Assembly: GCA_030390025.1 (NCBI GenBank) | Contig: CM059432.1 | Coordinates: 49,974,001 to 50,038,000 of the forward strand | Reading direction: 5' to 3' | DNA from: Squalus acanthias | Lineage: Eukaryota | DNA length: 64,000 bases | Shown: positions 2,048 through 56,417 of the stretch, piece after piece | How positions within the stretch are numbered: position 1 is the stretch's first letter | Layout: every line of letters begins with the position of its first letter | The notes under the pieces: generated by a model | Databases searched by the model: none | Seen by the model: only the letters and a program-made list of their open reading frames with translations | Told to the model about the DNA's origin: nothing | Position numbers and translations under genes: made by a program

Positions 2048-2516
2048 GACACCAAGGGTATACAGATGGGTGTTTGAAAAAATATTTCACACTAGGTGAA
2101 GCTTCACAATAGAATTATAGAATCATAGAGAAAAAAATTTAGGGCCACCAAAGTGCTGCCAGTGTCACCAGCAACTCGGGTTAACAGCCACTGAAAATGG
2201 ACGAAGCACTACCAGGGAAAAATTCGCGAAAGATTTTTAGTCCAGCATTAACTTACCATGTAAGACCCTCCTGGTGATGTTAGTGCCGGTCTGTGGGTCA
2301 AAGTTCCCGTCCTGAAGCGGTGTCCCAGTTTTTAACAGCCTCGGGAAGCAAGGCTATGGAGTTCGCTGGGAATAGTGGGAAATTAAAAGGGCAATGTATT
2401 GAAAGGGCAATGCCTTCTGAACTAATAAAAATTAAAATGAAGTGAAAAAAATGCAGTTTTCTGCCCTTATTGCCTTAAAAAAAATGAACATTAAAAAGAA
2501 GTCCCAAGGGTTGTAG

Positions 2517-4040: not shown

Positions 4041-4510
4041 AAATGGGAGTCTTCAGCTCATAAAGCTGAATTCCCTTCCAAAACTCATAAAATGGGAAAA
4101 GTGCTTCAGCACTAACACAAATGGCTCAGCAAACCAGGGAAGGGGCACCCAGGGTCTCGCACGCAGCACTCCAACTTTGTGCAGTGGGTCAACACTGCAC
4201 GAGAGGTCCTCTACCCACAGGGGCCAGGAAACCTTCAAGAAAGAAGGATCCTGGGACCACATCACCGAGGCTTCATGACCTCAGACCACTGATCAAAGTC
4301 AGTGAATGCATCTTCAAAAGCCGTCTCCTACCAACTGCACCACTAGCCTCACACACTTCTCAATGCATGACTCCCCCCTCAATCACTCACCTACCAGCAT
4401 TGTGTGTGAATCACGAGGCACCTCTCCCATTCCTAGCCGCACCTCACCCCCTTTGAGGAGACGGTCACTCTTGGCGGGGGCAGGGCTGAGTCCTTGGCCA
4501 GCGGCGGGGT

Positions 4511-4645
4511 AGAAACATAGAAACATAGAAACATAGAAACATAGAATCTAGGAGCAGGAGTAGGCCATTCGGCCCGTCGAGCCTGCTCCGCCATTCAATA
4601 CGATCATGGCTGATCATCCAAATCCAGTACCCTGTCCCTGCTTTA
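4511..4645 (-). mobile_element. CR1 3' terminal fragment
   Basis: (AGAAACAT)n = reverse of the CR1 tail, followed by the reverse of the conserved CR1 3' UTR. Confidence 0.85.
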
Positions 4646-4649
4646 ATCC

Positions 4650-4880
4650 CCACAGTACACATATCCCACCCTACCCCCGTAACCCCACGTATTTAATTCG
4701 CCCTAACATATCCCATCCTATCCCCATAACTCCACATATTTAATCCCCCCTAACACTAAGGGTCAATTTATCATAGCCAAATCAACCTAACCCACACATT
4801 TTTGGACTGTGGGAGGAAACCGGAGCACCCGGAGGAAACCCACGCAGACACGGGGAGAATGTGCAAACTCCACACAGACA
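4650..4880 (-). mobile_element. V-SINE (HE1-like) fragment
   Basis: TTGGACTGTGGGAGGAAACCGGAGCACCCGGAGGAAACCCACGCAGACACGGGGAGAATGTGCAAACTCCACACAGACA is the reverse complement of the V-domain seen in 21134-21446. Confidence 0.85.
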
Positions 4881-12406: not shown

Positions 12407-13003
12407 TTACAGTTTGTATTCATTCTTTGGCACTGTCCATAAAGAAGTCGATAAATTCAGATGCTCGCCTAAACAGACATCTGTGACCCTCTTAAGTAGT
12501 GGTGCACATTAGATTGACGGAGGTCAATGGAGGCTACCTGAAAGGATCTGACAGGGTAAAAATTCAACATTGTTGCCACTTTTACAACCACTGATAAGGC
12601 CATGTTCCTTGTTGGTCTGGGCTGTAAGACTGCAGAAAACAGCTGGCATAACTATAGCTGCCGAAGGAAAGCATGGGATTCTAATCCACTACCTCTGTGA
12701 ACAGTCAAGATGTTACTTCTAAGCTCATTGTATCCTCTAGAGTGGATAGATATGGGTCGGATGTTGATAACTTTTTTGATGTCTCACTTTCCTTCCTTCC
12801 ATCCCCTCCTCCTCTATATCCTTGCATCCTCCTCCCCATTTATGTTTTGATTCATTACATTGTGACAGATGTATAATTCTCATCATATATCATTATACAG
12901 TGTCATCATAGAGCTTAGTAAGAGATTTCATCACAGGTAATAACATAAAATCGGTCAGAAGCTTATCGAGAAAAAAAAAAGATTGGTAAGTGTGCTCGAG
13001 TTA

Positions 13004-13675
13004 CATAAGAACAGAAGAAATAGGAGCAGGAGTTGGCCATTCGGCCCTTCGAGCCCGTTCCACCATTCAATAAGGTCATGGCTGATCTTCTACCTCTTCT
13101 CCACTTTCCTGAACTATCCCCATATCCCTTGATTCCCTCAATATTTAAAAATCTATCAATCTCTGTCTTGAATATACTCAACGACTGAGCCTCCACAGCC
13201 CTCTGGGGTAGAGAATTCCAAAGATTCACCACCCTCTGAGTGAAGAACTTTCTCCTCATCTCAGTCCTAAATGGCTGACCCCTTATTCTGAGACTGTGAC
13301 CCCTGGTTCTAGACTCCCCAGTCAGGGGAAACATCCTCCCTACATCTACCCTGTCAAGCCCTGTAAGAATTTTGTATGTTTCAATGAGATCAACTCTCAT
13401 TTTTCTAAACTCTAGAGAATATAGGCCTAATCTACTCAATCTCTCCTCATAGGACAATCCCCTCATCCCAGGAACCAGTCTGGCGAACCTTTGTTGCACT
13501 CCCTCTATGGCAAGTATATCCTTCCTTAGGTAAGGAGACCAAAACTGTACACAATACTCCAGGTGTGATCTCACCAGGACCCTATATAATTGCAGCAAGA
13601 CGTCTTTATTCTTATACTCAAATCCTCTTGTAATAAAGGCTTTCCTAATTGCTTGCTGTACCTGCATGTTAACTT
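13004..13675 (-). mobile_element. CR1 3' fragment (family C)
   Basis: RT C-terminus in ORF 12963-13775 and 3' UTR matching 45300-45433. Confidence 0.9.
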
Positions 13676-14012
13676 TCCTGTCCACTCTATCTAGACCCCT
13701 CATAATTTTATACACCTCAATAAGGTCTCCCCTCAGCCTCCTCTGTTCCAAAGAAAACAAACCCAGCCTATCCAATCTTTCCTCGTAGCTAAAATTCTCC
13801 AGACCAGAACTGCACGCAGTACTCTAGCTGTGGCCTAACCAGTGTTTTATACAGTTCAAGCATAATCTTGAAGTGCCGTAACCTACAGGGCTAGGGACCA
13901 AGAGCTGGAAAGTGGGATTACGCTGGATAGCTCTTTGTTGGCCGGCGCGGACACGATGGGCCGAAATGGCCTCCTTCCGTGCTGTAAATTTCTATGATTC
14001 TATGATTCTATG
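13676..14012. mobile_element. CR1 family D fragment with inverted 5' part
   Basis: 13676-13865 is minus-strand RT C-terminus; 13871-14012 is plus-strand 3' end with (TTCTATGA)3 tail. Confidence 0.75.
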
Positions 14013-14066
14013 ATATTCCATTTGCCATGTTCTTGCCCACTCACTTAGTCTGTCTATATCCCCTTG

Positions 14067-14915
14067 AACAATAGCAAAATACTGCGGATGCTGGAAATCT
14101 GAAATAACAACAGAAAATGCTGGAAACACTCAGCAGGTCAGGCAGCATCGTGGAGAGAGAAACAGAGTTAACGTTTCAGGTCGATGACCCTTCGTCAGTT
14201 TTGGTGTCCATACTTAAGAAAAGACATACTTGCTCTCGAGTCAGTACAAAGAAGGTTCACTCGGTTAATCCCGGGGATGAGGGGATGGACATATGAGGAG
14301 AGGTTGGGTAGATTGGGACTCTACTCATTGGAGTTCAGAAGAATGAGAGGCGATCTTATTGAAACATATAAGATTGTGAAGGAGTTGGATCGGTTGGATA
14401 AGGGGAGGATGTTCCCGATGATGGGTGAAACTAGAACTAGGGGGCATAGTCTTAGAATAAGGGGCTGCTCTTTCAAAACTGAGATGAGAAGGAACTACTT
14501 CACTCAGAGGGTGGTAGGTCCATGGAATATGCTGCCCCAAAAAGCTGTAGAAGCTACATCATTACATAAATTTAAAACAGAAATAGACAGTTCCTAGAAG
14601 TAAAGGGAATTAAGGGTTACGGGGAGCGGGCAGGAATTTGGACATGAGTCTAGGTTCGGATCGGTCATGGCCCTGTGGATAGCGTAGCGGGCCCAGGGGC
14701 CGGGTAGCCTGATCCTGCTCCTATTTCGTGTGTCCAATTCTGTTAGGTTCAGGAGATGTTTCTGTGATAGTAGATTGGCGGTTAGGATCAGATCAGCCAT
14801 GATCTTATTGAATGGCGGAGCAGGCTCGAGGGGCCAATTGGCCTACTCCTGGTCCTATTTCTTATGTTCTTATGTTCTTATGTCAGAACTGGAAACAGTT
14901 AGAGATGTAACAGGA
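14067..14915 (-). mobile_element. Penelope pseudo-LTR split by a CR1 insertion
   Basis: 14067-14198 and 14882-14915 together match the reverse of 12285-12406; GTCAG duplicated at 14194-14198 and 14882-14886. Confidence 0.85.
14199..14881 (+). mobile_element. CR1 family A 3' fragment
   Basis: ORF 14184-14597 QFWCPYLRKDILALE..; doubled 3' UTR module and (TTATGTTC) tail. Confidence 0.92.
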
Positions 14916-32946: not shown

Positions 32947-33491
32947 TGTTGGTGAAAAATTAATTCACTCGAGTCTGTCTTAAAGCAAAAGATCACAGTT
33001 TATTATTCAGAGCGCTCTGGGAGAATGGTCACAGCCTGCGGTCTCATGACCCACTTCTCAATTTAACAATGGCAGCCACGCTTCTTTATACACCTCAAGA
33101 AGCCAGAAAATACAAACCTCAGCACAGTCATTACATCATAAGCGACTCTTATGGTCTCTAAAAACAACTTGTTTAGAATCTTACAATGTTAGCGAAACTC
33201 ATCTTTTACTTCTGCTTTTGGTCAGCCATCTGCGCTGCAAGGTTCCATTCTTAGCCTTTTCAAGGCTAGTTTATTATAAAAAACAATGATTCACATTTTT
33301 GTTCTGCAGTGTCTGCATTATCTATACTGCAGCCGAAGCAAGTTGGTCTTTTATCTAATTATACCCCTGTCTCCATGCCTTCGGGAGATACTTTGACCTT
33401 TACTATAGTCCTTTAAGCAGTTCAACTAATCTTAAACATTACAACTGATTTGCCCTTACATTATTACAATTTTTTTTTTTTTACTCTTACA
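32947..33491 (-). repeat. 3' LTR (545 bp)
   Basis: Direct repeat of 43033-43576 with about a dozen differences by eye; minus strand TGTAAG..CACCAACA, TATAAA at ~33085-33090, AATAAA at ~32999-33004. Confidence 0.97.
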
Positions 33492-33503
33492 GTCCCTCCT
33501 ATT
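33492..33503 (-). promoter_or_regulatory. Polypurine tract
   Basis: Minus strand AATAGGAGGGAC directly abuts the 3' LTR. Confidence 0.8.
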
Positions 33504-34008
33504 GGTCCCTGGCCAAAGCTTGATTTGTGCTGGGGACCATCATACCATGGTTATAACGGCGGCACACAGTTTCTTATTCTCTGTTGATGAGATCTTTTGA
33601 CGATGTTATTGTTGTTTCACAGTCCAATGTAAATGAGAACGCGCTCGGGAGAACGAGAGAGAAAGACACCCCGGAAGAGGTTGAGCTGCACAGTCCAGTC
33701 ACATCATGACTGTTGAGCTATTCGTACCATTTAGGTTAGGTTCTTCCTCTCCTCTTTCGTTTTTTTTATCCTCCGTCCTCTGCCTGACGTGTCATGAACA
33801 TGGCCTTTTCTTTGAAATATCGATGATCCATTTCTTCCGTGTGTAGACGTATTCCTTGTAGCTTAAAGTTGTTCCCTTCTTCATCTGTTTGTCTGTTTCT
33901 TCTTGTGTCATATGCCGCAACCAATGGTTTGTCCCTATTCTACTCGATCTCTAAAGTTTTACACATGCATTAATACAAACGTTACCCGCGCATAAGCATT
34001 TTCCTTTC

Positions 34009-34510
34009 TTAGATAAACAGAGATCTATCTTTTATGTTACGATACACCTGCCCCACTGGTGCGGCTGGAACGATATCTTTTGCCATTTGGGCGCAGCAAC
34101 ATTTCAACAATAAAACCAGACCATACATCACTAATATTATAACAAAGAACAAAATCAATCCTTGTACTACTGATGTCCCGAGTGATCCCAACCATCCAGT
34201 TGTCCAGCCCCAAAGGGTGGATGCCGGAGGTTGTTTTAATTTTTTACTTCTTCCTGTATGTGTTCTGCCAAGTTAGTTATTTCTTCTGAGCTGTCTGGTA
34301 TGTAGGTACAACATTCTGTACCTATTAGGGCACAGGTTCCCCCTTTTTCTGCAAACACATAGTCAAGGGCCATGTTAATGGATTCCCTTGCCAATTTACC
34401 CGTAACTCTCTTTTGGCCCGTGGGGGCACTCTAACCTGAGTCCTCCCGAGGCTACATATTATGTTTACACAAACAAGCAAACTACACATGATATCGCGTA
34501 ACACGTTCAT
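34009..34510 (-). pseudogene. env: Collapsed env remnant
   Basis: Signal-peptide-like MNVLRDIMCSLLVCVNIICSLG plus furin-like RAKR; then WGWTTGWLG, a hydrophobic TM (LILFFVIILVMYGLVLLL) and KCCC tail; located between integrase and PPT. Confidence 0.7.
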
Positions 34511-34819
34511 CTTATCACTTTATGTTAACAATGTCCCAAAGGCTATATCGCCAACCTAACCACTTTGTTGCTTGTAAATTCTATTTTCCTGTGGGGGTGA
34601 ATGGAATATTGTTATTAAGCTGGTTCCTCGATCATAATCATTTGGATTCCCTCCTCCTGCTCGACCGGTTGGAGGTGATGGGATTGCTCCCATACACGCT
34701 TCAGGAATGCATATTGTCCATACCAATGTTCGCACCAGCACCCACTCCCATTCTTTGTATTGTCTAATGTATTCTTCACTTTCTACAAAAGGTACTTGTT
34801 CTGGTGTAGCCATTCTTAA

Positions 34820-36315
34820 ATTGGTGAAGGGTCATAGGCTTTCAGCTGTGTCCAGTGCTTCCATCGTCCCATGCCCTTTATATTAATGCAAGCACACGTA
34901 TCCCCACTAATTAAAATCTGATATGGTCCCGACCATTTTTGGGGCGAACCCGGGTTTTCCTGGTCGATTCTTAACCATTACCTTGGTCCCCGCTGGAGCG
35001 ATATATGGAAATGCGGTCAATTCCAAATCTTTATCTCTTTCTTCCTGTCTTTCCCTAGTTTGCTGTTTCATTTCTTTTAATTGGTTACTCATTTCCAGGA
35101 CATATCTGCGGAGTTTATCCTTTAGGGGACCCACATCTTCTCCTCCAGTCATTATACCATGGGGGAGCTGCATTGCCCTCCCCGTCATTAGCTCATATGG
35201 TGATAGGCCCGTGGTTCGATTTGGGGTGGCTCTTAGTTTCATTAATACTATGGGTAGCACATCCACCCACCGTTGCTGTTTTTCCCCCAATGCTTTGGCT
35301 ACCACTGTTTTTAAGGTGCGATTCATTCTTTCTACCATTCCAGAACTTTGAGGATGGTATGAGATGTGGAATTTCTGTTTTATTGACCCCCTTCCTGTAT
35401 GTGCGCTTCCATGATGTAGTTCTAAAAGTATCTGTCTGATGCACGCGGGGGCTATCACCTTTCCATTCTTTTGCCATATTGCCTCTTCATCTGGTCTACC
35501 CCCTACTCGGTACCATTCCTGTCTTTCGTCTTCTGGGGCGTCTGCATGCAATTTACTGATATCTATTTCCTCTACCTGTGCACTAGCTACGTTCCCTTCA
35601 ACCATTTCTTGTTCAAGAGCTCGCTGTGCTGCTAGATCAGCGGCCTGGTTCCCTTTTTGCTCCTGATTCTGTATCTTCTGGTGCGCTTTGATTTTTATTA
35701 CTGCAGCTTGTGCTGGGGCTTTTGTGGCTTCCAAGAGGGCCTCTATTCGCTGCTGGTGTTTTATGTGATCCCCTCCGGTTGTCACAAACCCCCTTCTCCC
35801 CCAAGCTGTCATATAATCGTGTACCACTCCGAATGCATATCTACTATCTGTGTAGATGTTTACTGTCTTTCCCCTTGCTAATTCTAGCGCCTTTGTTAAC
35901 GCTACTATCTCGGCTACTTGTGCCGACAAGCCTCCGTCTCACCTTCCCGACATTTCTGTTTCCAACTGATCATTTACTACTGCCCATCCTGTCCGGGGAG
36001 ATCCCTCTACATATTTCCTTGACCCGTCTACGTACAGTGTCATCTGAGCTTCCTCCAGCGGTTCGTCCTGCACGAGGGTTTCGTCTAGTCCCCCTCCATC
36101 TCTGAGCACTGATGGGGGCTTCCCTCACTCAGGATGCCTTCCGCGGTGTTTTCCCCTGTATCCCGAATTACCTTAACTGTCTGGTCTATCGGCAGTAGGA
36201 CTGCTTCCCATCGAGCTCGCCGCATATTGGAAAATGACCGTAGTTTCCCAGTATTTAACATCTCTACCAGTGTATGCCGAGTGTGTAAGATGATATCCCC
36301 TGTCATCACAGTTGG
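34820..36315 (-). pseudogene. pol: pol C-terminal remnant (copy 2): tether, RNase H, deleted integrase
   Basis: RRARWEAVLL tether; YVDGS, SAQVAE, IYTDSRYAFG, KIKAH, GNQAAD; HHGSAHTG fused to YHPQSSGMVERMNRTLK (CC and first two acidic residues missing); WSGPY after a frameshift. Confidence 0.92.
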
Positions 36316-37020
36316 TTTGCTACTCTAACTCTGCATCTCTGTCCTACATTATTCTTAGCGCATATTATACAATGGAGACAATACTTCGCCACCTCTCGAC
36401 CCATCTTTGGCCACCACCAGTACTGTGTCAGTAGGTGCAACATGTTACTTCTGCCGGTATGTGTTACACCATGGTACAGCCCCATCAGTTGTTGTCTACA
36501 ACATTCCGGTGTCACCACCTGGTTTCGTGGGCCCCATCTCCAAATTCTATCTCGTAACTGTGCGCCAGCTTGTTTCCATCTCTCCTTTTCCTCTTTACTA
36601 GTATTTTCTTGTACCTCCACTATATTCTCTTCCTGTACCCCACTGGCTGTCATGACCATATTTATCTCGTGTTTAAACGCGGCTTCTGGTTTAAGTTCCT
36701 CCGCGGCTAGTTTTGCGGCCAAATCTGCATACCGATTTTCTATAGGAGCCTGATCCTGGGGCTCCTATGAGTCCATGTCTATCTTCATGTGGGCCTTTAT
36801 TTTAATTACCGCGGTTTCTAAAGGTGCCTGTGTCGCCTTAACTAACCTTTCTATTAGCTTTCCATGTTTTACTACCTTTCCAGTGGAGGTCATATAACTC
36901 CTTCTGTTAATATTCCAGTATGTTTTTGTATTAATACTGATCCATCTCTTGGTCAGAGGATTGTTTCCCACTTTGCTTTCTGGCTATCTGATATAGTTCT
37001 GTTTAAGAGCCCAAGGGGTT
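36316..37020 (-). pseudogene. pol: pol C-terminal remnant (copy 1): diverged tether, RNase H half, integrase HHCC
   Basis: SDSQKAKWETIL*PRDGSV; RRSYMTSTGKVVKHGKLIERL..AVIKIKAH..NRYADLAAK; YHGVTHTG..YWWWPKM..CLHCIICAKNN. Confidence 0.85.
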
Positions 37021-37605
37021 AATTTATCAAATCTTAATTTTCCTTCCATCACTGTGGGGAAATACTAACTTAAAATTAGGACACTTAAATTTAATAATGT
37101 CCAATATCTTTAAATTTCGTTCAGCCATACTAAAGTTGTTGCTTACAACTGGAGAAAAATTATTTTTTTTTCACCTTAAAACAAATTGCTTCGGAGGATT
37201 CCACCATAGCAACCGCGACTCCAAGGTTAAATCTTAGACTGAAACTTAGGGGTAGAAATTAGGTCGCGCCCCGTTTGGGGCGCAAATATCGTCCGGACGC
37301 AAATATTAGCGCCTGGTGCTAATTATCGGCACTGACAGGAAACTTCACTTTTACCGCCCCGGGAGGTGAGTGGAGCGCTAAATTAGGCGCTGCACACCTC
37401 TCTTAAGGCGCAAAGGCCAAGGAGTGAGGCGTTAACTCAGCGCACGAGCGCAGCGCAGCTGCTGCCAGTTAGCGAGGGAACACAGACACAATGGCGCTGG
37501 ACACTTCTTAAAGCGGGGGGGGCCACTTGCTCCCCAGCCACACCCTGCTCATTGCAGCCTTGAATCTCAGCCTGGAGAGACCTGTAATCCATTTTGCTGC
37601 CAAGC

Positions 37606-39428
37606 ATGGAGAGGGTGAGAGAACGAGCTCAGCGCTTCACCGAGCGGGCCTTGGATGCTCTGGTTGACGCAGTGGAGCGCAGACGATGCATGCTGTTCCC
37701 GGAGAGTGGCAGGAGGCCTTTGCCACGCGAGTTCAGAAGAGTGTGGAGGGAGGTGGCTCAGAGCGTCTCCTCCAGGAGCATGGTGCCCAGGACCCATGTT
37801 CAATGCCGCAAAAAGTTCAACGACCTCATTCGGGTCGTCAGGGTGAGTGGCTTTTTCTCAATACCTCTCCATCCCTCCATCTCAACCTCACTCTATGGCC
37901 AGAGGGTCTTAAAACCCCAATGCACAACACTCATCCAACACCTATGGCCCTTTCATCAAACACACACACACATTCCACACTTTGCATACAGTAAGGGCTA
38001 TTCACCTATGGGAGGCACATCAGGCAAGACCATGGCTGTATATTGTAAGGGCTATTCACCTATGGGAGGCACATCAGGCAAGACCATGGCTGTATATTTA
38101 CTCAGATGCTGTCCTTTTTCTTGCAGGCTAAGCTGGCTCATAATCGGAGACAGCAGCAACGGACGGGTGGAGGGCGGCTTCAGCTGCAACCCCTCAGCGA
38201 TCTGGAGGAGCGCGTCCACAGGATTGTGGCAAGCCGGGTGATCGGTCCCGTCGCCACTGGAGACGCCGACCCCGTTGTGGACAGCAATGGTAAGGTCATC
38301 ACCTTTTTGTCCTCTGTCCTTCCACTTGTCCCTCACAATACCAGCCTTTGACACTTTCAATCCAACTTGCTAACTCGCTGCACTTATTCCTCCCTTACTG
38401 CCACCCTGTCCTCACGCTAAAGCCACTCTTGTACCTCCCTGCTTTCAGATGGTGATTCACCAGCTGAGGAGACGGGCCCTGAAGCTGCCACTGGGAGTGA
38501 TGCTGCAGCTGAGGAGGAAGAGGAAGCCGGAGCATCAGTGCCACCCTCTCCCGAGGAAGCCCATGCCCACACTGGGAACACGCCTTCCCCGGAGGGGAGC
38601 AGGGGGGAAGGGGCTGATGATGGTGAAGCTCCAGGACCCAGCGGGCTGCAGCAACGCCATGGGGGGGGTAGGGAAGAACGGGGGCCTTCTCCCCAGAGGG
38701 AGAGTATGCCAGACACTCCTACTGCAATGGACGCAGAGGAGGAGCGGCTGATTGCAGAAATGAACAGCCAGGCGGTGGGCATGCACACTGAGCTCATGGG
38801 TGCAGTGGGAAGGGTGCCCGAATGCACTGAATCACTGGCAAGGAGTGTGGAGCACTTCGCTGTAGCACAGGCGGATGCCACACTAAAGCTTAGTGCTGCA
38901 ATTCAGTCACTGGCTGCCAGGAACCCATCTGAGACTGCTCTCATGCAGACTCATGTTGAGGCCACGCGAGCACTGACTGCTGCCATCCTCGATGGTTCGT
39001 GCACATGTCCCCGGGGCTGTCACCGCGCCGCAGCAGGCCAGCAATCTGTTCTCCGGCAAATTGCTCCGGATGCTGAAGTGCTGCCCCGTGGGAGTGCCAG
39101 TGTGTCGGGCGAGCAGGGAGTTGCTGTCCTCTCTCACGATGACAGCATTCCTGCTGCCAACACTGTCACTTCTCCACTGCACTTGCCACCGCCTGTAGGA
39201 CAGACTGCTGCCGCCCTTGCAGAGTTGGTGCAGTCTGCAGCCGGGCCCTCCAGGCCCAGAAGTGGTCGAGGCCGTCCTTCAGGGGCATCTGCAGTGTCAG
39301 GGTCTGACGAGCAGCAGCCTTCCACCAGCCTTGCTGCAGCCACTGAGGTCCCATCACGGAGGAGCAGTAGGGTTAGAAGGGGGGAAGTGCGCAAGGGAAG
39401 GAGATCACCCTCGAAGGGCAAAAAGTAG
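37606..39428 (+). CDS. Harbinger Myb/SANT-like DNA-binding protein, 3 exons (37606-37842, 38127-38289, 38449-39428), predicted 459 aa
   Basis: RFTERALDALV..WREVAQSVS..RTHVQCRKKFNDL; GTGAGT/TTGCAG (phase 0) and GTAAGG/TTTCAG (phase 1) introns give a continuous 1380-nt frame; basic C-terminus. Confidence 0.88.
37991..38098. repeat. Perfect 54-bp tandem duplication in intron 1
   Basis: GTAAGGGCTATTCACC...GGCTGTATATT twice (37991-38044, 38045-38098). Confidence 0.95.
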
Positions 39429-39722
39429 GAGGTGTGCCAAAATGCTGGTCATTTTTTTATTAAAGGCCGAGGTTCATGGTCCAACTTTTGTTTAGTGTTT
39501 TGGACATTATCTCCAGGTTGTGAGAACCAGTTATGTTATTGACTGTTTTTTTGTGTTTATTTCTATGAGTTTGTCATGAGGAATTGACACACACAGAGTT
39601 TGTAAAATAAATAAGTTTCTGTATTCAAAATATACATGGCTGGTGGTTGGAATTATTGGTGCCTTGGCCGGCTTAGGGGTTGCGTGCTGGGTTGATTAGT
39701 GTTTGTAGCAATGGCAGGGGCC

Positions 39723-40883
39723 CTAAGAGCGGCTTGCTATTAGTCGTTGACGGACGGCCCTTGCAGTTTGACCATTGTGGGCCGCCCTCCTGCCTTGGTG
39801 CTGCTGATGATCATCGTCCTCGTCCTCTTCCTCCTCTTCCTCCTCCTCCTCTGGTGGTGCTCCAAGGCCTGGTGGCATTGGCTGGGTCCTGAGGATTGCC
39901 ATGTTGTGCAACATGCAGCACACGACTACGAAGTTCGAAACTTGCTCAGGCGAGTACTGCAGGGCTCCTCCGGAATGGTCCAGACAGCGGAACCGTTGTT
40001 TCAGCACGCCGATTGTGCGCTCAATAATGTTCCTGGTTGCTTGATGGCTTTCATTGTACCGCAGCTCAGCAGGGGTGTTTGGCGTACGGAGCGGTGTCAT
40101 CAGCCAGGTGCTCAATGCGTACCCCTTGTCCCCCAGAAGCCAACCAACTGGCTGATGCGGTGCCTCGAAAACTTCTGCCACAGTAGTCTGGCGCAGGATG
40201 AAAGCATCGTGGCAGCTGCCCGGATAGTGGGCATTGACAGCGAGTATCACCTGTCTGTGGTCACAGACCAACTACACATTCAAGGAATGGAACCCCTTTC
40301 TGTTCCTGAATTCCTCTGCATTCTCTCGCGGAGCACGCAAAGCCACATGCGTGCAGTCAATGGCGCCCTGCACCATGGGGAAGCCCGCTACCCTCGCAAA
40401 GCCCAGAGCACGGTCACGCTGCTTGTCTGGGGTCATAGGGAAAGAGATGAAGTCTCGTCTCCTTCTGAAGAGGGCATTGGTGACCTGCCGGATGCAGCGA
40501 TGCACCGCAAACTGGGAGATATTGGCGAGGTCCCCAACAGCAGCTTGGAATGAGCCAGTGGCGTAGAAGTTCAAAGCCACTGTGACCTTCACTGCCACCG
40601 ACAGAGACGTCCTGGACCTCAGCTGAGGCTGCAGATCTGGCTGCAGCAGGTGGCAGAGCTCAGTGACCACCTCCTTGCTGAATCGCAGCCTTCGCAAACA
40701 CAGCTCCTCGGACATATGGATGTAGGAGAGCTGTTCACGATATACCCTGGGAGGGTAAGCTCTCCTGTACATGCGCCTGATGGCCCTCCTCCGTCTGGCC
40801 ATCATTGCCACTCTCTGTCTGCGTCTCACTATCCTCCGATTCAGCTGGAGCAGGACGACGCCCCCAATCATTGCAGCCCCCAT
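39723..40883 (-). pseudogene. Harbinger (IS5-like DDE) transposase with a single nonsense codon
   Basis: ORFs 40272-40883 and 39723-40271 are in frame (NV*LVCDH, TAG where CAG is expected); GAIDCTH, HDAFIL, LLGDKGY, IERTIGVLKQRF intact. Confidence 0.93.
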
Positions 40884-42059
40884 ATTCTCTTTGCCAGAAA
40901 AGTAATGAGGTACAGCAACTAAAGTAGCAACAAAGTTAGGATGAACTAGGCAAAACTACCTCACAAAGCGTTGAGTCAATGTAGAAGTCTCTCTCTCTCT
41001 CTCTCCGAATCTCTCTCTCTCTCTCAGAATGAGTGGTGCATAAATGTCGACCACAGAAAAAGACAGGAAGAGGCCCCCTTTAAATAGCGCCCCCCCCAGC
41101 CCCACACCGATTGATAACGTTCCAGTCTTCCGGTCGTTGGAAGCGCCAGGCGGTAAGGCAGGGGGCGCCACTCAATTTCCGCTCCGGGGCGCCCCAAGGG
41201 CGTTGCACCATGGAATGACGTCACAATCTGCGCGTGCAGGTGGTCGCAGCGGTAAGTTTTAGCGCCGCCGCACAATCTCAAGTTAAGTTCTCGAGCGGCA
41301 CAAACAGCGCTGCGCCCAGGCGTTAGCGGCTTAACGCCCCATTAGCGCCCTCTTAAGGCGCTAACGGGAGGCGCAACCAAGTGAATTTTTACCCCTTAAT
41401 CTTTTGTTAAACAAACTTTTTGTTTTTCTTCTCAGTTTTTACACACCAGCTTAACTTAAATTGTAGTTTGAAGTTTTGTTTCAATTCTGGGTGCACAATC
41501 TTATACACAAATTTACACCAACCAGAATTTCACTGTGGCCACAATGAAAGTCTGGTTTTAATAGGTTAATTCACCTCCAACTCCAATTCAATCCAGATCA
41601 GTTTTTTTTAAACTAACCAGTATCACTTGGAAAAGAAAGAAACCACATTAACAAAGAAACAATTACTCATGCCTTGTAAACATTCAAATTCATTTTCTTC
41701 CAGGCAAATTGGCAACTGTGACCTCAAGGCTGAAGCTTATCTTTTGTAAAACAATTAACAAACTTAAAACAACACACACTTGTCCGTCATTCAAGACAGG
41801 TCTCCAAAGGGTTAAACAGCTTTTAGCTCTCTGTACAAAAGAGTGGGTGGAGCTAAAACAAAAATGCCTTCCACTTTTTTTTTAAAAACAGACTTTCAGA
41901 CAAAAGAAATACTGTAACTTCTTAAACATTCACAGTCAGTGAAACTTTTACTCTTTAACACACACTTTCACCCAAACTGAGATCCCAGCATTTGTTAATT
42001 TTTTAAGGTTCCTGTCACTTAGCAAATCTTGAGTTTTATTTGTCTCGGCACAAATATTA

Positions 42060-42504
42060 ATAACTTCCATGTCGGTTTGTTTCCTGACTCATACCCTTTC
42101 TTAATCATCTTCCCTTGGTTAATTGTTGTCAGAGGTATGTCTCTTCCTTACTCCCGCAGAGTGAGACCGCACTTGCAACCTGTGTTGTCAGAGGTAAGTC
42201 TCTTCCTTACTCCCGCAGAGTGAGACCGTACTTGCAACCTCCTTTGTATAATAATAGCTCTTGTTCTAATTCAAGAATTCTTTCATTTTTACTTGCAAGT
42301 TTAGTGTGGAGTCGCTGCACCTTGTTTGTTAATGCGACTAATTGGTTTACTAGTATTACCCTCGCCTTTTTCATCTTTTTCTGTTTTTGACCCTCTACCA
42401 CTCTCTTTTTCCTTCGGATTCTGGAGCGGGTCCCACCCCTCCTTCGTCATCTTATCAACTAAACCCTTCCGGTCGTCTGCATAGGTCATAGTAAGGGACC
42501 CCAT
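42060..42504 (-). pseudogene. Possible gag N-terminal remnant
   Basis: MG- start ~500 bp after the PBS; after a frameshift, a coiled-coil-like stretch LVALTNKVQRLHTKLASKNERILELEQELL; broken by a 59-bp duplication (42124-42240). Positional inference only. Confidence 0.4.
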
Positions 42505-43012
42505 TCGTCCCTATTCTATTTCTTTCTACCACGCCATATATAGTCCAACTTTCAGTCTTACCAAATACTGAGTTCCTCTAATCGGGTTAGTTCTTGATAC
42601 CTTAAAAGACTTTAAGCGGTTACGTAGTCACAGCACACACACATATATTAATTGACTTCACGATCCCAGGGTACTTTGGTTCTCTACACCTACTTGATCC
42701 TGGCCATTACGTGGGGCCCAATCGCCCTCTTAATTCTGGCTCAGGCTAGGTGTGTGAGACAGGCGCCCTCCTTGTCCGTGTCGATCAGTCAATCACTCAT
42801 ACCTTCGCGACATTTATCGCTACACAGTGTTCTCTTAGTACACGCGATCCACACTCACACAACTGTGTTCTCCTACCTCTAACAGACTTTCACTTGATTC
42901 GTGATGCTATGGCACTGCCTCTCCGCCTATCCAAGTGACTCAATTTCTGGACGGTCAAAATTTGACTTCTCGTCCGGCTTCACTGGTACGGGGGGTCTTT
43001 CAGTCCCAGAGC

Positions 43013-43030
43013 ATCCTGCCGACTATGCCA
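43013..43030 (-). promoter_or_regulatory. Primer binding site, tRNA-Ser
   Basis: Minus strand TGGCATAGTCGGCAGGAT, 2 nt from the LTR; 17 of 18 complementary to the vertebrate tRNA-Ser 3' end ATCCTGCCGACTACGCCA. Confidence 0.9.
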
Positions 43031-43032
43031 AT

Positions 43033-43576
43033 TGTTGGTGAAAAATTAATTCACTCGAGTCTGTCTTAAAGCAAAAGATCACAGTTTATTATTCAGTGCA
43101 CTCTGGGAGAACGGTCACAGCCTGCGGTCTCATGACCCGCTTCTCAATTTAACAATGGCAGCCATGCTTCTTTATACACCTCAAGAAGACAGAAAATACA
43201 AACCTCAGCACAGTCATTACATCATAAGTGACTCTTATGGTCTCTAAAAACAACTTGTTTAGAATCTTACAATGTTAGCGAAACTCATCTTTTACTTCTG
43301 CTTTTGGTCAGCCATCTGCGCTGCAAGGTTCCATTCTTAGCCTTTTCAAGGCTAGTTTATTATAAAAAACAATGATTCACATTTTTGTTCTGCAGTGTCT
43401 GCATTATCAATACTGCAGCCGAAGCAAGTTGGTCTTTTATCTAATTATACCCCTGTCTCCATGCCTTCGGGAGATACTTTGACCTTTACTATAGTCCTTT
43501 AAGCAGTTCAACTAATCTTAAACATTACAACTGATTTGCCCTTACATTATTACAATTAATTTTTTTTACACTTACA
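43033..43576 (-). repeat. 5' LTR (544 bp)
   Basis: Direct repeat of 32947-33491; adjacent to the PBS. Confidence 0.97.
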
Positions 43577-43994
43577 CCACCCCACTGTTTGCACATCTTC
43601 AGTCCTTTCTATATCTCTGCAATATCTCTTTTATATCATCTGCTTTCTAACTAGGAATTTGCATATCATTTAACATATTGGGGTAAAATTTCCTTAGGAT
43701 TCTCCCAAACTCTCACTGAAATTTCAGCAAAAGATCAGCAGAAAGCTGGAGAAATGGTGTTAATGGTTGTTTCCACCAATTCACTTTTCTCACTGCAAGG
43801 TTTTTGGTCCAGTTCCTTCCCCTGAACTGGTGGTCTATAGCAGATGCCCATAGTTAGTTTCCTTCCCCTAATGTGTCTCATTCTTATTTGCAGAGATATC
43901 TACACCCAGATAGGTCCATCAGTGTTATAATCAGGTTTTCTTTCAAATAAAATGCCACACCCTCTCCTAGTGACACTACAGCAAAGGTAAGAAA

Positions 43995-45433
43995 TGTAAC
44001 CTCACTATTTAAGAAAGGAGTGAGAGAGAAAACGGGGACCAGTTAGCCTGACATCAGTAGTCGGGAAAATGCTAGAATCTATTATTAAGGACATGGTAAC
44101 AGGGCACTTAGAAAATAATAATAGGATTGGGCAGAGTCAACACGGATTTATGAAAGGGAAATCATGTTTGACAAATCTGTCAGAGTTTTTTGAGGTTGTA
44201 ACTAGCAGAATAGATGAGTGGGAACCAGGGGATGTGGTGTATTTGGATTTTCAGAAGGCATTCAATAAGGTGGCATACAAGAGGTTATTAAACAAAATTA
44301 GGGCTCATGGGATTGGGGGTAATATACTAGCATGGATTGAGGATTGGTTAACGGACAAAAATCAGAGAGTAGGAATAAATGGGTCATTTTTGGGTTGGCA
44401 GGCTGTAACTAGTGGGGTACCGCAAGGATCAGTGCTTGTGCCTCAGCTATTCACAATCTACATCAATGATTTGGATGAGGGGACCAAATGTAATATATCC
44501 AAGTTTGCTGATGAGACAAAGCTAGGTGGGAATGTAAGTTGTGAGGAGGATGCAAAGAGGCTTCAAGGGGCTTTTGACAGGCTAAGTGAGTGGGCAAGAA
44601 CATGGCAAATGGAATATAACGTGGAGAAATGTGAAGTTATTCACTTTGGTAGGAAAAATAGAAAATCTGAGTATTTTTTAAATGGTGAGAGATTGGGAAA
44701 GGTTGGTGTTCAGAGGGACCTTGGTGTCCTTGTACACGAATCACTGAAAGTTAACATGCAGGTACAGCAAGTAATTAGGAAAGCAAATGGTATGTTGGCC
44801 TTTATTACAAGAGGATTTGAGTATAAGAGTAAAGACGTCTCTCTGCAATTATATAGGGCCCTGGTGAGACCACACCTGGAGTATTGTGTACAGTTTTGGT
44901 CTCCTTACCTAAGGAAGGAAACACTTGCCATAGAGGAAGTGCAACAAAGGTTCACCAGACTGGTTCCTGGGATGGGGGGATTGTCTTATGAGGAGCGATT
45001 GAGTAGACTACGCCTATATTCCCTGGAACTTAGAAGAATGAGAGCTGATCTCATTGAAACATACAAAATTCTTACAGGGTTTGACAGGGTAGATGCAGGG
45101 AGGATGTTTCCCCTGACTGGGGAGTCTAGAACCAGGTGTTACAGTCTCAGAATAAGGGGTCGGCCATTTAGGACTGAGATGAGGAGACATTTCTTCACTC
45201 AGAGGCTGGTGAATCTTTGGAATTCTCTACCCCAGAGGACTGTGGAGGTTCAGTCATTGCGTATATTCAAGATAGAGATCGATAATTTTTTGGATATTAA
45301 GGGAATCAAGGGATATGGGGATAGTGCTGGAAGGTGGAGTTGAGGTAGAAGATCAGCCATGATCTTATTGAATGGCGGAGCAGGCTCGAGGGGCTGAATG
45401 GCCTACTCCTGCTCCTATTTCTTATGTTCTTAT
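43995..45433 (+). mobile_element. 5'-truncated CR1 (family C) with open 424-aa RT segment
   Basis: ORF 44069-45343; catalytic motif reads FADE rather than FADD; CR1 3' UTR and tail. Confidence 0.95.
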
Positions 45434-47125
45434 ATGAATTGATGATTGTGTGTGCATGGAAGGAGAATTGACTGTATTGGTTACAGAATTTTGAAATTGT
45501 TAATTATTGCCTCAGTTTAACATTTGTCCTCACTACAGTAAGTAAAGACAGTTGATGCCCTATGATTTTCTTGATCAGTCAATGACCAGCTACATTCTGA
45601 GCACCACTTAATTTTCCTCCATTACAGGAGATCATTTTATCCTATTGCAGGCTTTGCATGCTGTCAATCCAGTATGCCCACTGCATTGAATCACCGTGTT
45701 TTATTCTAGAATCAAAGCTTTTGATTAATTACCTGACTGAACATTTGTTTTTCCAAGTCAGCCAAATTGTGTTGTGTTCATCAATTGAATCTGGTTCACT
45801 TCATATCTCTTTGCAGATAATTTCATTTTTTTTTACTTGAATTAAGAACATAAGAACATAAGAAATAGGAGCAGGAGTAGGCCAATCGGCCCCTCGAGCC
45901 TGCTCCGCCATTCAATAAGATCATGGCTGATCTGATCCTAACCTCAAATCTAAAGAACACAAGAAGTAGGAGCAGGACCCGGCCACTCAGCCCCTGGGCT
46001 CGCTCCGCCACCCACAGGGCCTTGACCGATCCGAACTCAGCCTCATGTCCAATTTCCTGCCCGCTCCCCGTAACCCCTAATTCCCTTTACTTCTAGGAAA
46101 CTGTCTATTTCTGTTTTAAATTTATTTAATGATGTAGCTTCCACAGCTTCCTGGGCAGCAAATTCCACAGACCTACTACCCTCTGAGTGAAGAAGTTTCT
46201 CCTCATCTCAGTTTTGACAGAGCAGCCCCTTATTCTAAGATTATGCCCCCTAGTTCTAGTTTCATACATCCTTGGGAACATCCTTACCGCATCCACCCAA
46301 TCAAGCCCCTTCACAATCTTATATGTTTCAATAAGATCGCATCTCATTCTTCTGAACTCCAATGAGTAGAGTCCCAATCTACTCAACCTCTCCTCATATG
46401 TCCACCCCCTCATCCCCGGGATTAACCGAGTGAACCTTCTTTGTACTGCCTCGAGAGCAAGTATGTCTTTTCTTAAGTATGGACACCAAAACTGTATGCA
46501 ATATTCCAGGTGCGGTCTCACCAATACTTTATATAACTGGAGCAATACCTCCCTGTTTTTATAATCTATCCCCCTAGCAATAAAAGCCAACATTCCGTTG
46601 GCCTTCTTGATCACCTGCTGCACCTGCATACTAACTTTTTGATTTTCTTGCACGAGGACCCCCAGATCCCTTTGTACTGCAGTACTTTCCAGTTTTTCGC
46701 CATTAAGATAATAACTTGCTCTCTGATTTTTCCTGCCAAAGTGCATAACCTCACATTTTCCAATATTGTATTGCATCTGCCAAATCTCTGCCCACTCACC
46801 CAGCCTGTCTATATCCCCTTGTAGGTTTTTTATGTCCTCCTCACTTTCTACTTTCCCTCCCATCTTTGTATCATCTGCAAACTTTGATATGTTACACTCG
46901 GTCCCCTCCTCCAAATCGTTAATATAGATTGTAAAGAGTTGGGGACCCAGCACTGACCCCTGCGGAACACCACTGGCTACTGGTTGCCAATCCGAGAATG
47001 AACCATTTATCCCAACTCTCTGCTTCCTGTTAGATAACCAATCCTCCACCCATGCCAGAATATTACCCCCAATCCAGTGATTTGTTATCTTGAGCAATAA
47101 TCTTTTATGTGGCACCTTGTCGAAT

Positions 47126-48234
47126 AGAAGATAGGAGCAGGAGTAGGCCATTCGGCCCCTCGAGCCTGCTCCGCCATTCGATGAGATCATGGCTGATCAT
47201 CTAAACTCAGTACCCTGTACCTGCCTTCTCCCCATATACCTTGATACCTTTAGCTTTAAGAAATATATCTAACTCAACCTTGAATATATTTAATGACTTC
47301 GCCTCAACTACCTTCTGTGGTAGAGAATTCCACAGGTTCACCACTCTCCGGGTGAAGAAATTCTTCCTCATTTCTGTCCTAAATGGTTTACCCGTTATCC
47401 GTAGATTATGACCCCTGGTTCTGGATTCTCCGACCATCGGGACCATTCTTCCTGCATCTAGTTTGTCCAGACCTGTCAGAATTTTATATGTTTCGATGAG
47501 ATCCCCTCTCATTCTTCTATACTCCAGTGAGTATGAGCCCAATCGACCCAATCTCTCCTCATATGTCATTCCTGCCATCCCAGGTATCAGCCTTGTGAAT
47601 CTTCGCTGAACTCCTTCCATGGCAAGAACATCCTTCCTCAGATAAGGCGACCAAAACTGCACACACTACTCAAGGTGTGGTCTCACCAAGGCCCTGTACA
47701 ACAGCAGCAGGACATCCCTGCTCCTATACTCAAACCCTTTTGCTATGAATGCCAACATACCATTTGCCTTCTTCACCGCCTGCTGCACCTGCATGCTTAC
47801 TTTCAGCGACTGGTGCACAAGGACACCCAGGTCTCGTTGCACTTCCCCTTTTCCCAATCTATTGCCATTCAGATAATAGTCTGCCTTTCTGTTTTTGACA
47901 CCAAAGTGGATAACCTCGCACTTATTCACGTTATATTGCATCTGCCACGCTTCTGCCCACTCACCCAACCTGTCCAGATCATCCTGGAGTTTCTCAGTAT
48001 CCTCCTCGCAGCACACACTCCCACCCAGCTTTGTGTCATCTGCAAACTTGGAGATATTACATTTAATTCCCTTATCTAGATCATTAATGTATATTGTGAA
48101 TAGCTGGGGTCCAAGGACCGATCCCTGCGGTACCCCACTAGTCACTGCTTGCCACTCGGAAAAAGACCCATTAATTCCTACTCTCTGCTTTCTGTCCGCC
48201 AACCAGTTCTCTATCCAAGTCAATACCTTGCCCC
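47126..48234 (-). mobile_element. CR1 family B insertion nested in family A RT
   Basis: Host DFQKA|FDKVPH is split (48235 / 47125); the insert closely matches 55300-56405. Confidence 0.92.
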
Positions 48235-50069
48235 TTCTGGAAGTCTAAATACACTACGTCCACTGATTCCCCTTTATCCACCCTGTACATTATGTCCTCA
48301 AAGAACTCAAGCAAATTTGTCAGACATGACTTCCCCTTCATAAAGCCATGCTGACTTTGTCCTATTAAATTATGTTTATCTAAATGTTCTGTTACTGTCT
48401 CCTTAATAATAGACTCCAAAATTTTACCCACCACAGATGTTAGGCTAACTGGTCTATAATTTCCAGCCTTCTGCCTACTACCCTTTTTAAATAAGGGTGT
48501 TACATTAACAGTTTTCCAATCTGCCGGGACCTTTGCTGAGTCCAGGGAATTTTGGAAAATTATTACCAAAGCATCCAAAATCCCTACTGCCACTTCCCTC
48601 AAGACCCTAGGATGTAAGCCATCAGGTCCAGGGGATTTATCCGCCTTGAGTCCCATTATTTTACTGAGTACCAATTCCTTAGTGATTTTAATCGTATTTA
48701 GCTCCTCGCCCCCTAGAGCCCCCCGTTTGTCCAGTGTTGGGATATTCTTAGTGTCCTCTACCGTAAAGACTGAAACAAAATATTTGTTCAGCATTTTTGC
48801 CATCTCCATGTTTCCCACCATTAATTTCCCGGTCTCATCCTCTAAGGGACCTACGTTTGCCTTAGCCGCCCTTTTTCTTTTTATATAACTATAGAAACTC
48901 TTGCTATCTGTTTTTATATTTTTTGCTAATTTATTTTCATAATCTATCTTCCCTTTCTTAATCAATCCTTTAGTTACTTTTTGCTGTCTTTTGAAGACTT
49001 CCCAATCTTCTATCCTCCCACTAAGTTTGGCTACCTTATATGTCCTTGTTTTTAGTTGGATACTATCCTTAATTTCTTTACTTAGCCACGGATGGCTGTC
49101 ATTTCTTTTACACCCTTTTTTCCTCAGCGGAATATATGTCTTTTGAAAGTTGTAAAATAACTCCTTAAATGAACACCACTGCTCATGTACCGTCTTACCC
49201 TTTAATCTATTTTCCCAGTCCACTTTAATCAATTCCACTCTCATACCATCATAATCTCCATTATTCAAGCTCAGTACGCTTGTTTGAGAACCAACCTTCT
49301 CACCCTCTAATTGGATATGGAATTCAACCATGTTATGGTCACTCATTCCAAGGGGATCCTTAACTAGGACATTATTAATTAATCCTGACTCATTACACAG
49401 GACCAGGTCCAAGGTTGCTTGCCCCCTTGTAAGATCAAGAAATCCATCCCTATTACACTCAATAAACTCTTCCTCAAGGCTGCCCTGCCCAATTTGATTT
49501 GTCCAGTTAATATGATAGTTAAAATCCCCATAATTATAGCTGTTCCCTTATTACATGCCCCAACTATTCCCTGATTAATACTTCTTCCAGCAGAGTTGCA
49601 ACTATTAGGAGGCCTATATACTACTCCCACTCGTGTTTTTTTCCCCTTATTATTCCTTATCTCCACCCAAACTGTTTCATTATCCTGATCCTTTGACCCA
49701 ATATTATTTCTCTGTATTACAGTGATTCCTTCCTTTATTAACATAACCACCCCACCTCCCTTCCTTCCTGCCTGTCCTTCCTGATTGTTAAATACCCTGG
49801 CATATTTAATTCCCAGTCGTTGTCACCCTGCAGCCATGTTTCTGTAATGGCCACAAGATCATACCCATACGTAGTTATTTGTGCCGTTAACTCGTCCATT
49901 TTGTTACAAATGCTACGTGCATTCAGATAAACAACTTTCAAATATGTTTTGTGACACTTAGTTCCTGCTTTTTCCTTTTTTAACACTTTACCTTTTACTC
50001 CATACCTTCTGTCCCTTCCTGACACGCTTTCCTCTGTCTCCCTGCTCAGGTGCCCAACCCCCTGCCACT

Positions 50070-53479: not shown

Positions 53480-56417
53480 TAAAGCATCCCTATAAAGTCC
53501 AAGCCAAAAAAAACAAGCCTGAAGGCTTTCTGTCTTAATGCAAGGAGCATTCGGAACAAGGTGGATGAATTAGCTGCGCAAATAGAGGTAAATGAATATG
53601 ATTTGATTGGGATTACAGAAACATGGCTCCAGGGTGGCCAAGGCTGGGAACTCAACATCCAGGGGTATTCAATATTTAGGAAAGATAGGCAAAAAAGAAA
53701 GGGAGGTGAGGTAGCATTGCTGGTTAAAGAGGGGATTAACACAATTGAAAGGAAGGATATTAGCTCTGATGATGCGGAATCTGTATGGGTAGAACTGAGA
53801 AATAACAAGGGGCAGAAAACGTTAGTGGGAGTGGTATATAGACCTCCAAACAGTAATACGGAGGTTGGGGATGGCATTAAAAGGGAAATTAGAGAAGCAT
53901 GCAGTAAGGGCACAGCAGTCATCATGGGTGACTTTAATTTACATATAAATTGGGCTAACCAAATTAGTAAAAATACTGTGGAGGAGGAATTCCTAGAATG
54001 TTTACGGGATGGTTTTCTGGAACAATATGTCGAGGAACCAACGAGAGATCAGGCCATCTTAGACTGGGTATTATGTAATGAGAAAGGATTAATTAGCAAT
54101 CTTGTTGTACGAGGCCCCTTGGGTCAGAGTGATCATAATATGATAGAATTCTTCATTAGGATGGAGAGTGAAGTAGTTGAATCAGAGACTAGGGTCCTGA
54201 ATTTAAATAAAGGAAACTACGATGGTATGAGGCGCGAATTGGCTAGGATTGATTGGGGAATGTCACTCAAAGGGTTGACGGTGGATAGGCAATGGCAAAC
54301 ATTCAAAGACTGCATGGATGAACTACAGAATTTGTTCATCCCAGTGTGGCATAAGAATAAAACAAAAAGGGTGACTCAACCGTGGCTAACAAGGGAAATT
54401 AGGGATAGCATAAGATCCAAGGAGAGGGCATATAAATTGGCCAGAAAAAGCGGTAACCCTGAGGATTGGGAGCAGTTTAGGATTCAACAAAGGAGGACAA
54501 AGGGATTAATTAAGAAGGGGGAAATAGAATATGAAAGTAAGCTTGCAGGGAACATAAAAACTGACTGTAAGAGCTTTTATAGATATGTGAAGAGAAAAAG
54601 ATTAGTGAAATCAAGTGTAGGTCCCTTGCAGTCAGAAGCGGGGGAAGTTATAATGGGGAACAAAGAAATGGCAGACCAATTAAATGCATATTTTGGTTCT
54701 GTCTTCACAAAGGAGGACACAAATAACCTCCCAGAGATGCTGGAGAACATACGGCCTGATGAAAGGGAGGAACTGAAAGAAATCAGTGTTTGCAGGGAAA
54801 TGGTGTTAGGGAAATTGACGGGATTGAAGGCTGATAAATCCCCAGGGCCTGATAACCTACATCCTAGGGTACTTAAGGAAGTGGCCCTAGAAATAGTAGA
54901 GGCATTGCTGATCATCTTCCAACATTCGATGGAATCTGGAACTGTAGCCATGGATTGGAGGGTAGCTAATGTTGCCCCACTATTCAAAAAGGGTGGTAGA
55001 GAGAAAGTGGGGAATTACCGACCGGTAAGCCTGACATCGGTAGTGGGGAAAATGCTAGAGTCCATTATAAAGGATGTAATAGCTGAGCACTTGAAAAACA
55101 GTGACAGGATCGGACAAAGTCAACATGGATTTACAAAAGGTAAATCGTGCTTGACTAATCTACTGGAATTTTTTGAGGATGTAACTGGGAAAATAGATAA
55201 GGGAGAACCAGTAGATGTGGTGTATTTGGACTTTCAAAAGGCTTTCGATAAGGTCCTGCATAAGAGATTAGCGTGTAAAGGTAAGGCACATGGGATTGGG
55301 GGCAAGGTATTGACTTGGATAGAGAACTGGTTAGCGGACAGAAAGCAGAGAGTAGGAATTAATGGGTCTTTTTCCAAGTGGCAGGTAGTGACTAGTGGGG
55401 TACCGCACGGATCGGTCCTTGGACCCCAGCTATTCACAATATACATTAATGATCTAGATAAGGGAACTAAATGTAATATCTCCAAGTTTGCAGATGACAC
55501 AAAGCTGGGTGGGAGTGTGTGCTGCGAGGAGGATACCGAGAAACTCCAGGATGATTTGGACAGGTTGGGTGAGTGGGCAGAAGCGTGGCAGATGCAATAT
55601 AATGTGGATAAATGCGAGGTTATCCACTTTGGTGTCAAAAACAGAAAGGCAGACTATTATCTGAATGGCAATAGATTGAGAGAAGGAAGTGCAACGAGAC
55701 CTGGGTGTCCTTGTGCACCAGTCGCTGAAGGTAAGCATGCAGGTGCAGCAGGCGGTGAAGAAGGCAAATGGTATGTTGGCCTTCATAGCGAAAGGGTTTG
55801 AGTATAGGAACAGGGATGTCCTGCTGCAGTTGTACAAGGCCTTGGCTGAGACCACACCTTGAGTACTGTGTGCAGTTTTGGTCGCCTTATCTGAGGAAGG
55901 ATGTTCTTGCCATGGAAGGAGTTCAGCGAAGATTCACAACGCTGATACCTGGGATGGCAGGAATGACATATGAGGAGAGATTGGGTCGATTGGGCTTATA
56001 CTCGCTGGAGTATAGAAGAATGAGAGGGGATCTCATCGAAACATATAAAATTCTGGCAGGTCTGGACAAACTAGATGCAGGAAGAATGTTCCCGATGGTC
56101 GGAGAGTCCAGAACCAGGGGTCATAATCTAAGGATAAGGGGTAAGCCATTTAGGACAGAAATGAGGAAGAATTTCTTCACCCAGACCATGGAGAACCTGT
56201 GGAATTCTCTACCACAGAAGGTAGTTGAGGCCAAGTCATTAAATATATTGAAGAATGAGTTAGATATATTTCTTAAAGATAAAGGTATCAAGGTATATGG
56301 GGAGAAGGCAGGTACAGGGTACTGAGTTTGGATGATCAGCCATGATCTCATCGAATGGCGGAGCAGGCTCGAGGGGCCGAATGGCCTACTCCTGCTCCTA
56401 TCTTCTATGTTTCTATG
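53480..56417 (+). mobile_element. CR1 family B, near-complete ORF2 (APE + RT) and 3' UTR
   Basis: ORF 53561-55801 (746 aa) with GITETW, VYRPP, MGDFN, SDHN, QHGF, KFADD; frameshifts near 55680 and 55845; tail TTCTATGTTTCTATG. Confidence 0.96.

Follow-up and report, generated by a model that had tools for sequence, protein, structure and literature searches.

The window, that is the whole stretch of 64,000 nucleotides of Squalus acanthias DNA that was analyzed, carries on its minus strand a class I endogenous retrovirus (ERV) provirus, which occupies positions 32947-43576 and measures about 6.5 kb once a nested Harbinger transposon is subtracted (Table 1). The LTRs both end in TG...CA, have the 4-bp target site duplication (TSD) CCAC on either side and are identical at 533 of 545 positions, which agrees with the ~98% given in an earlier reading made from the letters alone (below, the sequence-only reading). 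The traits of class I (gamma/epsilon-like) ERVs are present: a tether followed by an MLV-like RNase H, the 4-bp TSD and an env with a CX6CC region. The primer binding site (PBS) was assigned with a tRNA list from the accessible part of PMC10359600.

Table 1. Features of the provirus, in the order 5' LTR to 3' LTR (positions in the window)
Feature	Position	Strand	Remarks
5' LTR	43033..43576	minus	544 nt, TG...CA; TSD CCAC at 43577-43580
PBS	43013..43030	minus	17/18 letters match the 3' end of tRNA-Ser(AGA/TGA)
Leader and probable gag remnant	41399..43012	minus	'gag' from position only
Harbinger/PIF transposon nested in the provirus	37249..41395		4.1 kb; short TIRs, TTA target duplication
Probable protease C-terminal remnant (lineage A)	37030..37197	minus	Moderate support
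Module 1 tether piece, short	36914..37000	minus	Joined to the protease remnant across the whole-RT deletion
Module 1 main part	36312..36905	minus	RNase H C-terminal half, linker, integrase N-terminal domain
Module 2 tether, C-terminal part	36094..36321	minus	70% to P0001/P0352
Module 2 RNase H plus the integrase N-terminus through the HH half of its zinc finger	35385..36091	minus	RNase H complete
Module 2 integrase, core end to C-terminal domain	34830..35384	minus	Catalytic E kept
Env remnants	34012..34829	minus	N-terminal piece, SU mostly deleted, CX6CC region, membrane anchor
Polypurine-tract-like stretch	33492..33503	minus	Purine-rich sequence just before the 3' LTR
3' LTR	32947..33491	minus	545 nt; TSD CCAC at 32943-32946

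Gene remnants and the nested transposon

The gene set of an autonomous retrovirus is incomplete in the element: there is no RT, nothing in it matches a protease active site and both catalytic Asp residues of the integrase are absent. A tblastn search with the RT part of the Pol protein P0352 found nothing at E<=1 in the whole window. A 'YADD' at 42483 was considered as an RT motif and dropped, being an isolated match where the RT search was empty. The probable protease remnant matched P0350 (tblastn, E 6.5e-4) with a score that was reached by none of 300 shuffles (one of 300 for P0352), and did not match the five other Pols tried. An alternative in which both modules described below start at the same 'PTVM' tether position was abandoned, since 37030-37197 better fits a protease end. 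The env remnants matched Pfam TLV_coat below the cut-off (E 0.0027) and P0250 by tblastn (E 4e-8). The probable gag remnant has an MG start near 42504 and a coiled-coil-like piece at 42210-42446; no homologue was found for the two putative gag pieces that were looked up. It also contains a 58-nt tandem duplication (97%) at 42124-42240.

The Harbinger element encodes a DDE transposase on the minus strand (DDE_Tnp_4, E 3e-29) and a Myb/SANT gene on the plus strand, and looks full-length; its terminal region is very deep in all four sequencing runs that are compared below. Neither this transposon nor the probable protease remnant in front of module 1 figures in the sequence-only reading. Elsewhere in the window many LINE-like repeat fragments are found in both orientations (2500-4650, 13000-14900, 44000-48500 and 55000-56400).

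Two diverged pol tails in tandem

Between the protease and env remnants lie two homologous modules, each composed of parts of tether, RNase H and integrase. The translation of module 1 (36312-36905, with the stop read as X) is identical to module 2 at 57 of 161 residues (35%, E 2e-27); taken by pieces, the alignment gives 25/48 (E 1e-13) and 32/106 (E 3e-12). At the DNA level only a 33-nt match is left, besides the 31 nt by which the two query slices overlap. With the empty RT search, this bears out the sequence-only reading of two tandem modules without RT.

Module 1 corresponds to residues 676-870 of P0352, at 36% identity. Its main part has the complete HHCC finger, ends before the integrase catalytic core and contains one stop near 36765. 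The integrase portion matched Pfam Integrase_H2C2 above the cut-off (E 8e-14) and PFV integrase (E 4e-6). The half RNase H had no match to Pfam RNase_H, but it nonetheless aligns with the RNase H of relatives, so that the RNase H-integrase homology proposed earlier for 36316-37020 has the profile behind it for the integrase and the alignment to relatives for the RNase H. The short tether piece, which is out of frame with the main part, is weak when taken alone: its profile score of 4.8 bits was reached by one of the 295 shuffles that scored (300 run), and tblastn to P0271 gave E 0.017. Other copies have 18 extra letters at 36910 that, read by eye, extend the tether match. The junction of the RT deletion lies near 37006. 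Module 1 agrees with 29 of 36 highly conserved columns and with 16 of 103 variable ones, where intact relatives of the shark clade agree with 31-33 of 36-37 highly conserved columns. This pattern, like that of intact Pols, indicates that module 1 diverged as a working protein and not by mere decay.

Module 2 aligns with P0352 over residues 505-580 (70%), 582-824 (61%) and 961-1057 (75%). Its RNase H keeps all four acidic motifs (D-E-D-D), with a stop near 35940 and a frameshift near 36088, and gave clear profile and structure matches (Pfam RNase_H, E 4e-23; best PDB matches MLV/XMRV RNase H, E 5e-31). The integrase has an in-frame deletion of about 136 codons before 35384 and a frameshift near 34940. 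The deletions of the two modules had been called complementary, module 1 having the whole HHCC finger and module 2 the RNase H motifs and the integrase C-terminus. They are not complementary in function, since residues 871-960 of P0352, with both integrase catalytic Asp residues, are missing from both modules.

The reading frame changes at each boundary between the protease piece, the first tether, the first RNase H and the second tether. Module 2 begins within the tether, in a frame other than that of module 1, and of the four junctions within pol only the integrase deletion of module 2 is in frame, as expected by chance. Thus, the layout of a duplicated Pol tail was not found: the modules do not share one Pol frame and RT is absent. 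Neither an internal LTR nor a TSD was found in the sequence at the module junction. The stop codon of module 1 overlaps an ATG in the frame of module 2 at 36304-36308; the overlap is probably coincidental, as the parent tether (P0001) has a Met at that position.

Relatives of the modules and other copies of the element

The relatives of the two modules differ in how close they are. The class I (epsilon/gamma-like) shark ERV Pols P0001, P0352 and P0271 are 57-75% identical to module 2 and 34-38% to module 1; the P0001/P0352 cluster includes Mustelus asterias XP_078069418.1, and P0271 is from Pristiophorus japonicus. The sequence-only reading had suggested looking for a full-length relative with gag-pro-RT, and relatives with protease and RT exist. 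P0352 (1057 aa) consists of protease, RT, tether, one RNase H and an integrase with a full DDE core, and P0350 likewise keeps protease, RT and a single RNase H, unlike the element. No parent of module 1 was found in the protein collections searched, where its best relatives reach 39-46%. A search for module 1 homologues at 'longer' lengths gave none among 1180 candidates, which is a weak negative given that relatives surfaced by other routes. Scans of metagenomes gave 164 pattern matches with module 1 and 30 with P0352, and a scan of viral sequences gave six with module 2; none was confirmed.

A tree of 50 rows (48 references; two picked rows lacked coverage) and 190 columns of the RNase H/integrase stretch, which has no outgroup from other classes, places the element among fish class I-type Pols. 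Module 2 groups with P0001, P0121 and P0271 at 100/99, on a branch of 0.75 compared with 0.14-0.38 for its relatives, and module 1 falls outside this group. Forcing the modules together costs 19 log units, with a borderline AU p of 0.046. The rows nearest to module 1 by path belong to the same shark clade as module 2, and module 1 may be sister to that whole clade, module 2 included, at a support of 50/49 that neither demonstrates nor rejects this position. The borderline AU value, this possible sister position and the failure to find a parent of module 1 count against an origin from two viruses, and the tree may be compatible with an old duplication inside one viral lineage.

The other proposal of the sequence-only reading was a virus with a duplicated pol tail. 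Under it, the ancestor would be an autonomous shark retrovirus in which both tether-RNase H-integrase tails worked while diverging to 35%, and RT would have been lost later. The constraint under which module 1 diverged, its position nearest to the shark clade, the marginal AU rejection and a protease remnant that is closest to that same clade all speak for it. Nevertheless, the close RT-bearing shark relatives have one RNase H and one integrase, and among 362 proteins screened no close relative had these domains doubled. Moreover, the beginning of module 2 lies inside the tether and in another frame than module 1, and the differences listed in four sequencing runs (see below) include no indel at the module junction. 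We therefore find this proposal unsupported and its truth very unlikely. In the same screen, 25 distant proteins had repeated weak matches, for the most part to the H2C2 stretch, and four swallow gene models contained a second, partial RNase H. P0014 and P0022 were considered as sharing the integrase deletion of module 2 and dropped, their gaps being at other positions. The Pol-like proteins P0003-P0007 (989-1165 aa) have RNase H and integrase with no recorded RT Pfam match, and are possibly other RT-degenerate elements.

At least half of the sampled words of the element were present in 9 of 20 listed public sequencing runs (organisms A-E, studies P1-P4), one of which may be the source sample; none of the holders listed is marked as RNA. 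Four of the 20 (X1, X3, X9 and X11, under three organism labels) were compared in detail; X11 is only presumed to be RNA and was not counted as evidence on expression. In each of the four, all 30 bins were covered, those of both modules included. A rule of 31 letters, applied to the 32 pieces shown of 5161, gives a bridge over the module junction in one run of the four, by X11 record 13 (36109-36470); in X1 and X9 this junction is crossed by contigs that overlap by 30 letters, just below that bar. The RT deletion is bridged by X1 record 8 and the tether/RNase H deletion by X11 record 15, whereas X11 record 11 reaches across the integrase deletion of module 2 with no more than 27 letters. The contigs are short: the same inactivating deletions are seen across copies through one or two bridging contigs per junction, and none of those listed spans both modules whole. 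In addition, 10 contigs of X3 and four of X9 have loose ends at 37248 that continue, by eye, into the window from 41399, which reveals copies without the Harbinger insertion. Together, the coverage of both modules in all four runs, the bridged junction and the Harbinger-free copies indicate that the doubled tail belongs to a multi-copy family shared between samples and did not arise as an artefact.

The same data bear on whether the doubling could have arisen in this copy alone or after integration, through a nested insertion, ectopic recombination or a mistake in the assembly, and have been multiplied, if at all, by segmental duplication. The knowledge of other copies from short contigs only leaves some room for this. 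Against it, both modules have a similar depth (22-41 in X1, counting the listed pieces that closely resemble this copy, and 24-38 in X9), contigs cross junctions in samples under three different organism labels, the four runs often agree on the same alternative letter where they differ from this copy, Harbinger-free copies exist and the junction has no internal LTR or TSD. We regard such a rearrangement as highly improbable.

The runs also differ from this copy at the stop and frameshift sites of module 2, so that these breaks look private to it. Loose ends at 35384 and 37006 mark relatives without the corresponding deletions, and at 35384 X11 has a relative with an undeleted integrase core. 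In X3 the long diverged pieces have a depth of 16-33 versus 479 for a shared piece, which hints at tens of copies, depth itself not being a copy number. Over 37029-37178 and 34016-34930 the depth is several times that over the modules, and loose ends occur at 37006, 34506 and 34560. This suggests more abundant sister families that have the protease end and the env region in common with the element, in some cases with a longer env, and that lack the doubled tail. An X11 contig lacks 474 nt at 35041-35516, with 12-nt direct repeats at both ends. The joint was considered as a splice and dropped on account of these repeats; it reads as a deletion, and may represent a further deletion variant of the family.

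The sequence-only reading took the LTR identity to mean that the chimera replicated recently. The LTRs differ by five transitions and six transversions in 544 sites (K = 0.0205). At the epaulette-shark mutation rate of 7 x 10^-10 per site per generation (95% CI 1.4-14.1; accessible part of PMC10587355), this corresponds to about 1.5 x 10^7 generations (0.7-7 x 10^7), an estimate from few differences and with a rate that may not suit the host. The presence of the family across organism labels agrees with an old amplification wave, and a recent replication is therefore not established. In a shark, LTRs that are 98% identical are no proof that the insertion is recent.

Origin of the doubled tail and its meaning

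Co-packaging of genomes and template switching are established retroviral biology. On balance we consider it probable that the element is a non-autonomous class I ERV whose doubled pol tail arose by out-of-register recombination of two retroviruses and which was copied by helper viruses afterwards. Module 1 most likely derives from a second virus, considering that it is only 34-38% identical to the relatives of module 2 and yet keeps the conserved columns. In the proposed sequence of events, reverse transcription would have switched templates between co-packaged genomes and so joined the 5' part of a virus A to the 3' part of a virus B. Virus A would have contributed the protease end, the scrap of tether, the RNase H half and the integrase N-terminus. 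Virus B would have been entered about 1.1 kb upstream of the homologous point, the join linking the integrase N-terminus of A to the tether of B, and in that case the stretch from tether to integrase N-terminus would be present twice. Before or after this step, deletions would have taken RT, half of the first RNase H, the integrase core and most of env. The LTRs, PBS and polypurine tract would have been kept, allowing amplification with Gag, RT and integrase supplied in trans, and this copy would finally have gained its private mutations and the Harbinger insertion. The RT-bearing P0352 and P0350 are candidate helpers, as is the X11 relative with the undeleted integrase core. Thus, of the two origins offered by the sequence-only reading, a non-autonomous lineage that recombined with a different virus is the one supported, both by the differing relatives of the modules and by the presence of the chimera in other samples.

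In this recombinant the doubled tail is most likely a passenger without function. A variant of the chimeric origin would have module 2 kept as an expressed frame, an intact RNase H fused in frame to a dead integrase that might help the element's RNA in cis like the mouse IAP IΔ1 protein, possibly with a restart at the ATG that overlaps the stop codon of module 1. The in-frame integrase deletion, the four remaining acidic motifs, the apparently private nature of the stop and frameshift, the stop/ATG overlap and the IΔ1 precedent (accessible part of PMC6466679) are in line with it. On the other hand, one in-frame junction out of four is at chance level, the Met was inherited from the parent tether, the module 1 frame is cut off from any upstream ORF and the module 2 branch is long compared with those of its relatives. 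We consider this variant quite unlikely. Taking the functional layouts together, a shark retrovirus with two working RNase H-integrase tails, or a satellite with its own RNase H frame and borrowed RT and integrase, is unlikely; if true, either layout would be a retroviral pol arrangement not met in the literature searched.

Among known systems, the recombinants of KoRV and PhER (recKoRV), some with microhomologies at the breakpoints, come close: as far as the accessible part of PMC6112702 describes them, they too are defective proviruses derived from two dissimilar retroelements that then spread by integration typical of retroviruses. Here, unlike in recKoRV, the join is out of register and inside pol, which leaves the corresponding domains of the two parents one after the other, and the shark family spans several organism labels and is probably far older. 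Like the mouse non-autonomous IAP IΔ1 and ETn/MusD elements, as presented in the accessible part of PMC6466679, the shark element kept LTRs and cis signals, lost enzymes and needs proteins in trans. Those elements are, however, class II, and IΔ1 is a deletion derivative of a single virus with a working fusion ORF whose protein acts in cis, whereas the shark element probably has two parents and has at least five deletions. Background on non-autonomous fish ERVs and on shark ERVs is found in the accessible parts of PMC8672886 and PMC10699275. In the literature searched, no provirus is described whose pol tails stand in tandem; Repbase/Dfam, subscription journals and supplements may hold the family.

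The element is likely an unusual form of a familiar type of genomic parasite, of which the tandem, out-of-register pol tails are the new aspect, and the doubled tail points to no new enzymology. Module 1 preserves part of a retroviral lineage to which nothing in the searched protein collections is more than 46% identical. If the recombinant origin holds, the element would record that, in a cartilaginous fish, two retroviral lineages with Pol proteins only about 35% alike were packaged together and underwent illegitimate template switching, and the route of recKoRV, to recombine, break and be remobilised, would also have run in early-branching vertebrates.
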